A DNA stretch of 64,000 nucleotides. Origin: Escherichia phage slur14. Below, in pieces: positions 1-3,941 of this stretch; position 1 is the stretch's first letter; each line of letters starts with the position of its first letter. The notes beneath the pieces were generated by a model. That model was not told the origin of the DNA, did no database searches, and saw only the letters and a program-made list of their open reading frames with translations. The stretch is from the sequence record NC_028448.1; one strand, written 5' to 3'. The translations under genes and the position numbers were made by a program.

Positions 1-2691
1 ACTGCAAATGCCCATCTTTGGTTTGAAAATACAAATGGCTCAGAACGTGGCGTTTTATATTCAAAACCGCAGTCTGAAAATGAAGGCGTAATTACAATGC
101 GTGTTCGTCAAGGAACCGCTGCGGGAGCTCAAAATTCAGAATTTCATTTCATTTCTACTGATGGTGGTATCTTCCAGGCACGCAAATTAACTGCTTTAAC
201 TTCTATTAGTACACCAACTATTAGTGTTAATTTAATTAATCATGATTCTAAAGCCTTTGGACAATACGATTCACAATCATTGGTTCAGTATGTTTATCCT
301 GGAACTGGTGAAACAAACGGTGTAAACTATCTTCGTAAAGTTCGATCTAAGTCAGGCGGAACTATTTACCATGAAATTTGTACAGCTCAGACTGGACTGG
401 CAGATGAAATGTCATGGTGGACTGGTAATACACCGTTATTTAAACTATATGGTATTCGTAACGACGGTAGAATGATTATTCGCAATAGCTTGGCCATTGG
501 TACTGTGACGCAAGGGTTTCCGTCAAGCGATTATGGAAATGCTGGGGCACTAGGAAATATATTTCTTGCTTTAGGCGATAATGGAACTGGTCTAGTTTAT
601 AGAAAAACTGGTGTATTTGATTTCGTTGGTTCTGGTTTATCTTTGGCATCTATCACACCTGATAGTTTCCGTAGTACTCGTAAAGCAATATTTGGACGCT
701 CAGAAGACCAAGGTACAACATGGATTATGCCTGGAACGAACGCTGCATTTTTATCAGTTCAAACACAAGCTGATGAAAACACTGCTGGAGACGGTCAGAC
801 ACATATTGGCTATAACTCAGGCGGAAAAATGAACCACTATTTCCGTGGTAAAGGCAAAACTAATATTAATACTCAAGAAGGCATGGAAGTTAACCCGGGT
901 ATTTTGAAATTGGTAACTGGCTCTAATAACGTACAGTTTTATGCCGACGGAACAGTATCTTCAATACAAAGAATTAAATTTGATAACGGATTAGTTCTTA
1001 CTGGTGCTAGACCCGACGGTATTCAACTTGACGCTCCTACAACAACAGATGGCACTAAAACTATATTGTGGGCCGCCGGTACTCGCCCAGGTCAGAATAA
1101 AAGTTATCTATCTATCAAAGCATGGGGTAATGCCTTTAATGCATCTGGCAATCGTGCTCGTGAAACAGTTTTTCAAGTATCAGATGGACAAGGTTACCAT
1201 TTTTATTCTCAACGAGTTGCTCCCGGATCAGGTTCTACCGTCGGACCTATTCAATTTCGAGTTAATGGTGGTTTATTAACTTCTGGTGGTATTACATCAT
1301 CTGGTTCTATTGTTACTGAATCAAGTTTAGTTGCAAATAATGGATTATCTGTAAATGGTCAGGCTAAATTCGGTGGAACAGCAGATGCGTTGAGAATTTG
1401 GAATGCTGAATACGGCGCTATTTTCCGTCGTTCAGAAACTAGCTTTTATATTATTCCTACTCTTAAAGACGCTGGTAAAAGTGGTGGAATAAGTAATTTA
1501 CGCCCATTTACCATCAATCTTGCAAATGGCAGTGTTATGATTGGTAATCATACACAAGCTGGAAAAAATTTGCTTACTATTGATAATGTATCAAAATTCG
1601 TTCAGACTGATGTTAGACTTCGTGTTAACATGGATTCTGACGGTATTGTGCTCAACGCATCATCTCAAGCATCATCTAACTTTATTCAAGGACGTAAAGC
1701 AGATGTAACAAAATGGTATTTAGGTATTGGCGATGGTGGTAATGTTGTTCGTATGCATAATTACACTTACTCCCACGGCATTGCATTGAATGCTGATACA
1801 GTCGATATTACTAAGCCTCTTAAAATTAATAATATTCGAATTGGTACTGACGGTAACATCACAGGTGGTTCTGGTAATTTTGCTAACTTGAATACCACAA
1901 TAAATAACCTTAAGACGGATATTGTCTCAAGTTATCCTATTGGTGCTCCGATTCCTTGGCCTACTGATACACCTCCTGAAGGTTATGCCATAATGGAAGG
2001 TCAAACATTTGATGCTGACTTGTATCCTAAGTTAGCTGCGGTGTATCCTTCCGGCACTCTGCCTGATATGCGTGGTCAAACTATCAAGGGTAAACCATCC
2101 GGGCGTGCTGTATTGAGTACAGAAGCAGACGGTGTTAAGTCACATAGCCATAGTGCAAGTGCATCAAGCACAGATTTGGGTACTAAGACCACTTCTAGTT
2201 TTGATTACGGTAGCAAAACGACTTCAAGCTTTGATTATGGTACTAAGACCAGTAATACCACTGGTAACCATAGCCATACAGTGAGTGGTAATACTAGTTC
2301 CGCTGGTGCGCACCAACACTCACAAACCGGTCCAAGGGGTACTAATAATCAACCCACAGGAATATATCCTAATGGATCTACTCGAATTAGCGGAACCCTG
2401 GTTGTTGGTTTTGGCCTAAGCAACGGTGTTGTGCCTGGTACAAGCCAATATATTGCAAAGTCGTCAACAGAAGGTAACCATACCCATACTTGGTCTGGTA
2501 CTACTAGCTCTACGGGTAACCACGCGCATACTGTAGGTATCGGTGCCCATAGCCATTCGGTCGGTATTGGTGCTCATACCCACACGGTAGCTATTGGTTC
2601 GCACGGACATACTATCACTGTAAATAGTACAGGTAATACAGAAAACACGGTTAAAAACATTGCTTTTAACTATATCGTTCGTTTAGCATAA
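1..2691 (+). CDS. 37: Long tail fibre distal subunit gp37 (5'-partial; reading frame open from window start)
   Basis: Frame 1 is open from nt 1 to the stop at 2691. C-terminus carries His-rich GxHxH repeats and ends [11 protein letters not shown], as in the T4 gp37 needle domain. Followed by gp38 and holin t. Confidence 0.9.
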
Positions 2692-2720
2692 GGAGAGGGG
2701 CTTCGGCCCCTTTTTATAAT
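2691..2720 (+). promoter_or_regulatory. SD (AGGAG) + GGGGC-UUCG-GCCCC hairpin + U-tract between gene 37 stop and gene 38 AUG; split RBS and/or attenuator
   Basis: Perfect 5-bp stem with UUCG tetraloop at about 2697-2710, sitting between the only SD-like sequence and the gene 38 ATG at 2721. Confidence 0.6.
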
Positions 2721-3272
2721 ATGAAACTCTATCATTATTATTTTGACACTAAAGAATTTTACAAAGAAGAAAATTATAAACCATTAAAAGGCGTAGGATT
2801 TCCGGCTCATTCAACACCAAAAAAACCTTTAGACCCTAAAGAAGGTTACGCTGTTGTATTTGACGAACGTGAACAAGAATGGGTATATATTGAAGACCAT
2901 CGTGGAAAAACAGTATGGACTTATGATAAGCAAAAAATTGTTATTGACACTCCAGGTGCTCTTCAAAATGTTACTACAGAAGAACCTGGTGAATTTGACA
3001 TTTGGACCGACGACGGGTGGAAGGAAGATGAAGCATATAAACGCGTAGTTCAACGTGATAAGAAAATTCATGAACTCTATAAATTATTCAGTGTTTTAAG
3101 TTCTCTTATTGACGCAGAGGTTGCTAATAGAGAAGAAAAACGAAAATTTAAAGAGCTCAAAAAATTCTTTGCCCTTTTAGAAAAACATGAACATCTTGGC
3201 GGCGAATTCCCTAAATTCCCTGACCTTGAAAACAAATCTATTATCAAAGCGATTATAAATATCTTTAAGTAA
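2721..3272 (+). CDS. 38: Tail fibre assembly protein gp38 (T4-type chaperone, 183 aa)
   Basis: 183 aa, the same length as T4 gp38, and positioned between gene 37 and holin t. Confidence 0.85.
   Translation: MKLYHYYFDTKEFYKEENYKPLKGVGFPAHSTPKKPLDPKEGYAVVFDEREQEWVYIEDHRGKTVWTYDKQKIVIDTPGALQNVTTEEPGEFDIWTDDGWKEDEAYKRVVQRDKKIHELYKLFSVLSSLIDAEVANREEKRKFKELKKFFALLEKHEHLGGEFPKFPDLENKSIIKAIINIFK
3254..3261 (+). promoter_or_regulatory. Late promoter TATAAATA upstream of holin gene t
   Basis: Exact TATAAATA about 20 nt upstream of the t start, followed by an AAGGAGG RBS. Lies inside the 3' end of gene 38. Confidence 0.65.
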
Positions 3273-3281
3273 GGAGGTATT

Positions 3282-3941
3282 ATGGCAACACCAAAAGTGT
3301 CATTTTCGCCTAGTGATATTCTATTTGGGTTGCTAGATCGTATTTTCAAAGATAACGCTACTGGAAAGGTTTTAATGTCCCGAGTAGCGGTAATTATTCT
3401 TTTGTTCCTAATGGCACTAATATGGTACAAAGGAAGTATTTTGCTGGATTATTATGTAAGAGCTAAGTATGATACTTATACTGAAATAATCCAAAAAGAA
3501 CGAGCTTTACGTTTTGAATCTGCGGCTCTAGAACAACTGCAAATAGTTCATATCTCATCTGGTGCAGATTTTAGTGCTGTGTATTCTTTCAGACCTAAAA
3601 ACTTAAATTATTTTGTCGACCTTATAGCTTATGAAGGCAAACTACCTAGCACAATTTCTGAAAAGTCCCTTGGTGGATTCCCGGTGGATAAAACGGCTAA
3701 TGAATATATAATTCATTTAAGTGGCCGTCATTTCTCATCTAAATCAGAATTTGCATTTTTGCCTACAAAATCTAAGACTGCCGAACTTTCTTATATGTAT
3801 AGTTGTCCATACTTTAATTTGGATAACATCTATGCTGGAACTGTGACGATGTATTGGTATAAGGGGAATAATATACTTGAGGAAGATCGCTTAGCGGCTA
3901 TATGCAACCAAGCGGTCCGAATACTAGGAAGGGCTAAATAA
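3282..3941 (+). CDS. t: Holin t
   Basis: 219 aa. Near-identical to the T4 holin as I recall it (start SFSPSDILFG, end ILGRAK), with an N-terminal TM segment. Confidence 0.95.
   Translation: MATPKVSFSPSDILFGLLDRIFKDNATGKVLMSRVAVIILLFLMALIWYKGSILLDYYVRAKYDTYTEIIQKERALRFESAALEQLQIVHISSGADFSAVYSFRPKNLNYFVDLIAYEGKLPSTISEKSLGGFPVDKTANEYIIHLSGRHFSSKSEFAFLPTKSKTAELSYMYSCPYFNLDNIYAGTVTMYWYKGNNILEEDRLAAICNQAVRILGRAK

Follow-up and report, generated by a model that had tools for sequence, protein, structure and literature searches.

The distal end of gp37, the long tail fibre protein encoded at the start of the window (the whole stretch of 64,000 nucleotides of Escherichia phage slur14, sequence record NC_028448.1, that was analysed), is very probably a tip of the T4 type, with a needle shaft made of paired modules, eight predicted metal sites, a head of 47 residues for the receptor and a T4-type gp38. 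The tandem decapeptide repeat in this tip is not an independent feature but, judging from its sequence, the ascending counterpart of a 9-residue His-box repeat on the descending strand. Decapeptides and His boxes together would constitute the needle shaft, with the decapeptides, by homology, at the collar end and furthest from the host, and by alignment this predicted shaft has one repeat unit more per strand than that of T4. As far as its sequence tells, the tip is an ordinary member of the well-studied T4 "iron needle" family, in a phage that is sequenced and annotated.

The part of the plus strand from 1 to 2691 holds the C-terminal 896 codons and the stop codon of gp37, with frame 1 open from the first base and the stop at 2689-2691. 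The gene begins some 333 nt before the window (the gp37 CDS of phage slur03 has 1007 residues), and the ATG at 97 in the list of open reading frames is an artefact of the window edge, not the gp37 start. Over 1800-2700 nucleotide identity is 100% with Escherichia phages slur03, slur08 and BYEP02. In slur03, which originates from cattle slurry and was isolated on E. coli K-12 MG1655 (PMC4698387), the CDS carries the annotation long tail fiber protein distal subunit; a tail fiber assembly gene and the holin gene come after it, in the order 37-38-t of T4. Pfam reports the domains Gp34_trimer, gp37_trimer and Collar for this part of gp37; the tail fibre repeat PF03335 (Phage_fiber), for which many homologues have a precomputed match, was not reported here at E<=0.01. 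Scans for tRNA genes and Rfam families over the whole window found nothing. The features at the level of the genes are as follows.

1 to 2691, plus strand: gp37, distal subunit of the long tail fibre (open frame, nucleotide identity, slur03 annotation, Pfam)
2697 to 2710, plus strand: hairpin GGGGC-UUCG-GCCCC (folding, minimum free energy -16 kcal/mol, z = -3.1)
2721 to 3272, plus strand: gp38, T4-type tail-fibre assembly chaperone of 183 residues (T4 homology, Pfam)

With T4 gp38, gp38 shares 68% identity across 179 residues (E=1e-91), and it matches the Pfam family Caudo_TAP, bearing out the proposal of the sequence-only reading that it is a T4-type chaperone and not a T2-type adhesin. The T2/T6/S16 arrangement, in which a gp38 adhesin caps a cleaved gp37, was considered and rejected. 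There, gp38 has about 260 residues with glycine-rich motifs and hypervariable loops and gp37 carries a C-terminal intramolecular chaperone, whereas the gp38 found here is a homologue of the T4 chaperone with 183 residues and gp37 ends in a T4-type C-terminal strand. By analogy with T4, folding of the tip would need this gp38, encoded just downstream, and gp57A. The hairpin sits between an AAGGAG that follows the gp37 stop and the gp38 ATG. It was seen by folding and not flagged by a scan for consensus terminators between genes 37 and 38; it is conserved in T4, and phage JK42 has a compensatory change from G-C to A-U.

The last 279 residues of gp37 (query residues 618-896) match the structure of the T4 gp37 tip, PDB 2XGF, with a phmmer E-value of 3.2e-90 over chain residues 2-242, so that the match spans the entire chain of 242 residues (T4 residues 785-1026). 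For T4 the domain limits have been given as 811-881 and 1010-1026 for the collar, 882-931 and 960-1009 for the stem, and 932-959 for the tip (Islam et al., PMC6957217). A global alignment of gp37 from the window with T4 gp37, cut at these boundaries, provided the per-domain identities and the following map.

1930 to 2139, plus strand: collar or knob domain (T4 D10, 811-881; Pfam Collar PF07484, E=2.2e-11, above the curated cut-off)
2140 to 2319, plus strand: ascending strand of the needle stem with three HxH motifs (alignment to 2XGF and T4 residues 882-931)
2320 to 2460, plus strand: head (tip subdomain) of 47 residues, predicted receptor-binding part (corresponds to T4 932-959)
2461 to 2637, plus strand: descending strand of the needle stem with five HxH motifs (alignment to 2XGF and T4 residues 960-1009)
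2638 to 2688, plus strand: C-terminal strand returning into the collar (T4 1010-1026; 17 of 17 residues identical to T4)

The T4 tip (D10, D11) has the same collar, HxH needle, head topology and C-terminal strand, and the protein of the window differs from it by a 10-residue insertion, a replaced head and a 9-residue insertion. The collars are of equal length and 80% identical, the ascending stem is 62% identical (60 versus 50 residues) and the descending stem 68% (59 versus 50 residues); at the DNA level identity to T4 reaches 100% over about 2618-2706. An alignment with T4 had been proposed as a check on the distinctness of the tip, and the two tips are indeed not identical, the heads having 47 versus 28 residues and sharing 17% identity. 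An AlphaFold2 monomer model of the 279-residue tip, built on an alignment of 70 sequences, reached a mean pLDDT of 52 and a pTM of 0.22 and was not used.

The tip contains eight HxH motifs, and all 16 histidines of the last 190 residues of gp37 belong to such pairs; in seven of the eight motifs glycine stands at position -2. Chance as their origin was rejected: when the last 187 residues were shuffled 100,000 times, 1.28 HxH motifs arose on average, six at most and never eight. The sequence-only reading had listed five His motifs, all of which are real, but the tally was short, as KSHSHS, GAHQHS and GNHAHT had been missed.

2143 to 2151, plus strand: HxH 1, KSHSHS, aligned with T4 H883/H885
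2269 to 2277, plus strand: HxH 2, GNHSHT, aligned with T4 H915/H917
2311 to 2319, plus strand: HxH 3, GAHQHS, aligned with T4 H929/H931
2479 to 2487, plus strand: HxH 4, GNHTHT, aligned with T4 H966/H968
2521 to 2529, plus strand: HxH 5, GNHAHT, by its position in the series T4 H980/H982, although pairwise alignments put the 9-residue gap here
2548 to 2556, plus strand: HxH 6, GAHSHS, within the 9-residue descending array
2575 to 2583, plus strand: HxH 7, GAHTHT, within the 9-residue descending array
2602 to 2610, plus strand: HxH 8, GSHGHT, within the 9-residue descending array

Each of the seven HxH motifs of T4 aligns with one in gp37 of the window, and one more is added. Seven iron ions are bound by the seven motifs of T4 gp37 (PMC6957217; PMC6116203). 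Alanine in place of the iron-binding residues H929 and H931 is lethal in T4 (PMC6957217), and the same HxH/Fe geometry is found in pyocin fibres and phage spikes (PMC6116203). The suggestion that the GxHxH motifs fit the metal sites of the T4 needle thus stands, given the homology to 2XGF and the match of seven out of seven T4 motifs. By this analogy the motifs would face the needle axis, where three symmetry-related copies place six histidines around one metal ion, Fe(II) at the His6 sites of T4, and the trimer encoded in the window would hold eight metal ions as compared with seven in T4. Octahedral axial sites made of three HxH copies are also known from the R-type pyocin fibre shaft, P2 gpV, the phi92 spike and Bas63 (PMC6116203; PMC12609058). 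Most of these other trimeric fibres and spikes have one or few sites, and we found no description of a paired 10-residue/9-residue repeat in them.

The shaft contains two repeat arrays, one on each strand.

2167 to 2256, plus strand: three tandem 10-residue ascending units (2167-2196, 2197-2226 and 2227-2256)
2533 to 2613, plus strand: three tandem 9-residue (27-nt) His-box units carrying HxH 6-8 (Tandem Repeats Finder)

The first array had been described as some 2.5 tandem decapeptide copies. Re-translation reproduces this count, with copies at 2179-2208 and 2209-2238 and a partial copy from 2239 (GTKT...), and in the other register, listed above, the array consists of three full units. T4 has two such units; the extra one is the middle unit, 2197-2226. 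Between the two full decapeptide copies seven of 30 nucleotides differ (77% identity in DNA), and the encoded peptides are 90% identical. Six codons are affected; five of these changes are synonymous, the remaining one causing a conservative exchange of Thr to Ser. The earlier statement that the copies use different codons was therefore correct. In the DNA this array escaped Tandem Repeats Finder, but the program detected the second one (period 27 nt, 2.4 copies, 2533-2598), which had not been pointed out as a repeat in the sequence-only reading. Here too T4 has two units, the extra unit of the window being the first one (VGIGAHSHS, 2533-2559); the last reads VAIGSHGHT. The copy number of the repeats is the same in slur03, JK42, mar007P3, SSE1 and APCEc01, and this constancy, together with the higher identity of the copies in protein than in DNA, agrees with the claim that the repeat is maintained at the protein level.

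How could the two arrays fit together in the needle? According to the architecture proposed here, the segment 1852-2688 would give rise to a collar, a trimeric beta-needle of six strands and a small head; each chain would climb the needle, make the head and descend again. Between the first and the second HxH the ascending strand has no histidine and would consist of units of the form x-(T/F)-D-(L/Y)-G-(T/S)-K-T-x-x, each lying alongside one 9-residue unit V-G-I-G-A-H-x-H-(S/T) of the descending strand, which would supply the metal site there. Expressed in T4 residue numbers, the antiparallel register would be i+j = about 1891, with 882 opposite 1009 and 931 opposite 960. This register reproduces the two published T4 contacts G921-F970 and G964-H929 (PMC6957217), and it pairs the T4 unit 891-900 with the 9-mer 993-1001 and the unit 901-910 with 984-992. 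H998/1000, H989/991 and H980/982 of T4 would then fill the His-free gap between the ascending H883/885 and H915/917, resulting in an evenly spaced file of seven sites. One more unit on each strand, as in the window, would add one more site at unchanged spacing, and the sites would follow each other from the collar in the order up, down, down, down, down, up, down, up. The length of the needle would change by whole modules of one unit per strand, three in the window and two in T4, and the shaft of the window is expected to be about one module, roughly 3 nm, longer than that of T4. This pairing of the units is inferred from homology, sequence offsets and covariation. Where a 10-residue unit faces a 9-residue one, each module would have to contain a bulge or take a longer route.

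The covariation was found by parsing the HxH spacings of homologues from a search of 5.8 billion proteins (120 listed of about 2,600 homologues), a library of representatives at 50% identity and IMG/VR, which together provided 171 distinct tips. Among the matches listed, the first HxH is separated from the next ascending one by 12+10n residues (22, 32, 41/42, 52, 62 or 72/73), where n, ranging from 1 to 6, counts the trailing 9-residue HxH spacings of the descending strand. This rule fits 170 of the 171 distinct tips among the matches listed, although the tips are related to one another and the counts overstate the number of independent events. Moreover, the HxH pair spaced by 14 residues beside the head is found on both strands, in zero, one or two copies each, or on neither. 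An apparent deviation (P0238) has lost the distal ascending HxH, and in two further tips (P0230 and P0231) an extra HxH lies within the ascending segment while the summed length still obeys the rule. The sole exception is an IMG/VR locus (L007, IMGVR_UViG_3300030021_000020) with three ascending units and two 9-residue spacings, which may be a tolerated unmatched form or intermediate, or the result of a 27-nt repeat that collapsed in metagenome assembly. The heads of these tips fall into 59 clusters at 45% identity. Seven of the 59 clusters hold more than one module number, and in all seven the strands are matched except for L007, which indicates that the module number varies, by change or by recombination, irrespective of the head and in both strands together. 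We found no statement of this pairing rule in the literature covered; the primary T4 structure paper (Bartual 2010), which lay outside that coverage, may describe the pairing. Searches for "His box" or GXHXH returned only papers on desaturases and ubiquitin proteases.

These observations also bear on the idea that the repeats arose by recent slippage of the DNA and represent a variable contingency locus devoid of structural meaning. Both arrays are tandem and in frame, and the 27-nt array is detected by Tandem Repeats Finder, as would be expected from slippage. However, the copies are only 77-78% identical in DNA with mostly synonymous differences, their number is identical in five phages of two genera, and the arrays, which are separated by about 300 nt, change together across homologues, something that slippage at one array cannot bring about. 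This explanation is hardly credible, and a slippage-prone locus was rejected as a candidate, neither near-identical copies nor variation of copy number among close relatives being found. The reading of the two arrays as matched partners in the shaft accommodates their joint change.

In 1996 Tetart et al. reportedly described T4 host-range mutants with duplications in the C-terminal part of gene 37. This was counted in favour of the view that the decapeptide repeat is a receptor-binding surface, the copy number of which directly tunes host specificity, and the decapeptides do lie inside what the 2XGF paper terms the receptor-binding tip. By homology, however, they start about 9 residues past the collar-proximal beginning of the stem, at the end furthest from the head, and they hardly vary among fibres that carry heads of 59 unrelated clusters. 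In addition, the receptor contacts of T4 map to residues 932-959 (PMC6957217), which speaks against contacts by the decapeptides. Because they sit in the stem and stay conserved next to unrelated heads, we rejected the repeats as receptor contacts, and a direct role in host range is very improbable. The sequence-only reading had assigned the decapeptides to the receptor-binding region; the repeat itself is real, but by homology it belongs to the collar end of the stem and would not contact the receptor. Likewise, the expectation that the gp37 tip determines host range holds, with the determinant predicted in the 47-residue head and in neither the repeats nor the His boxes.

Specificity should reside in this head, 2320-2460, and the closest relatives suggest which receptor it recognizes. 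The segment between HxH 3 and HxH 4 is identical to that of JK42 and mar007P3 at 50 of 53 positions and to that of SSE1 at 46 of 53. Since JK42 was found by RB-TnSeq to use OmpC as receptor on K-12 and O157:H7 strains (bioRxiv 10.64898/2026.07.23.740414) and the two heads are nearly identical, OmpC is most likely the protein receptor of slur03; it is our best guess, based on head similarity. The three substitutions relative to JK42 (T/P, R/Q and L/Q) could alter the specificity for receptor variants. T4 likewise uses OmpC, with a head of unrelated sequence.

The tips of mar005P1/mar007P3, JK42 and SSE1 share the entire architecture of the tip of the window, with HxH spacings of 42, 14, 56, 14, 9, 9 and 9 and heads identical at 46-50 of 53 positions. 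Slur03 belongs to the genus Tequatrovirus, whereas JK42, mar007P3 and SSE1 belong to Mosigvirus. In windows of 60 nt, identity to mar007P3 is 33-57% upstream of about 1840 and 92-100%, mostly 97-100%, from about 1930 through gp38. Taken together with the different genera, this pattern makes tip and chaperone look like a cassette shared between genera. Fibres of the same collar/HxH family are also encoded in prophages of E. coli, Shigella and E. fergusonii (P0007-P0010, L010). They have a related head (SQTGPR...KSSSEGN) but two stem modules as compared with three in the window, and short, unrelated N-terminal shafts, with total lengths of 300-470 residues.

Exchange of heads raises a further question, namely whether the segments coding for the His boxes serve mainly as homologies for recombination during head swapping, an idea of Tetart and Krisch, with the protein motif being secondary. 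Compared with APCEc01, nucleotide identity drops from 98% to about 42% at around 2320 and recovers at around 2470-2500, points that coincide with HxH 3 and HxH 4 on either side of the head. One head type can be found with two as well as with three modules, and in both phage and prophage fibres, and motif-mediated shuffling at the tail-fibre locus, as summarised in PMC3157838, fits this reading as well. On the other hand, the histidines are invariant in the protein while their codons vary, the solved structure shows them as metal ligands, and replacing H929 and H931 with alanine is lethal in T4 (PMC6957217). As the primary role of these segments, recombination is possible but unlikely. It is best seen as a by-product of conservation at the HxH sites, hence as an additional role rather than an alternative to metal coordination in the needle.

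It could further be imagined that the gp37-type needle is a quantised shaft of adjustable length, which is extended only by matched pairs of a 10-residue and a 9-residue unit and in which the module number acts as a ruler. For Bas63 fibres it has been remarked that the more di-His motifs a needle has, the longer it is (PMC12609058). We regard the idea of a quantised shaft acting as a ruler as doubtful. If true, the module number might be under selection for the reach of the head through O-antigen or capsule, and the pairing rule could guide fibre engineering and flag mis-assembled fibre genes.

The accepted picture of T4-type adhesins is left unchanged by this analysis. What is added is a domain map, the interpretation of the decapeptide as counter-strand of the His boxes, the extension by one module and the probable OmpC specificity of a head that differs from that of T4. 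For chimeric or length-altered T4-type tips the matched-module rule represents a design constraint, and for assembled genes it offers a sanity check. In the phage itself, the 141 nt from 2320 to 2460 should set the choice of receptor, with the repeats serving as scaffold.

In the needle stem of gp37, the distal subunit of the long tail fibre, a module consists of one ascending unit of 10 residues and one descending His-box (HxH) unit of 9 residues. Among 171 distinct homologous tips, collected by two protein searches and one IMG/VR scan, unmatched modules were found in a single case, the locus L007 (1501-2307 on IMGVR_UViG_3300030021_000020), which has three ascending 10-residue units and only two 9-residue His-box spacings. 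This mismatch may represent a genuine intermediate or may have arisen by collapse of a 27-nt repeat during metagenome assembly. Some other homologous fibres (P0114, P0125 and P0219) carry far longer needles: they count 5-6 modules, and their HxH motifs number up to nine or ten. Some ascending units of the long-needle homologues form a 20-residue super-repeat in which TDLGxK... and FDYxTK... alternate. Among the matches listed, several tip homologues (P0048, P0052, P0053, P0058, P0059 and P0070) have incongruous source names (terminase, tape measure protein, short-chain fatty acid transporter), and some have mixed Pfam domains; mis-annotation, or chimeric calling of genes on prophage contigs, seems to lie behind these entries.

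How is gp37 linked to the gene of its assembly chaperone, gp38? The junction contains a hairpin:

2689-2723, (+) strand, GGGGC-UUCG-GCCCC hairpin with its flanks, between AAGGAG and the gp38 ATG (2721)

The AAGGAG lies 5' of the hairpin, with its first base inside the gp37 stop codon. The hairpin is conserved in T4, and the version of the Mosigvirus phage JK42 shows a compensatory change from G-C to A-U. The hairpin could move a remote Shine-Dalgarno sequence near the gp38 start codon. T4 gene 38, with its ribosome-binding site split in this way, is a known case. Across the window (1-64000), the tRNA scan found no tRNA genes and the Rfam scan returned zero families at or above the gathering score.

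Comparison with T4 gp37 shows a strong mosaic along the gp37 shaft (1-1850): identity falls from 74% for T4 residues 131-400 to 58% for residues 401-600 and 24% for residues 601-784, and climbs again to 80% in the collar, the domain preceding the needle. Compared in 60-nt windows with the Mosigvirus mar007P3, the distal part of gp37 and the entire gp38 (about 1840-3292) share 92-100%, mostly 97-100%, nucleotide identity, whereas the shaft upstream of about 1840 shares just 33-57%, suggesting that a cassette of adhesin tip plus chaperone has been exchanged between Tequatrovirus and Mosigvirus.
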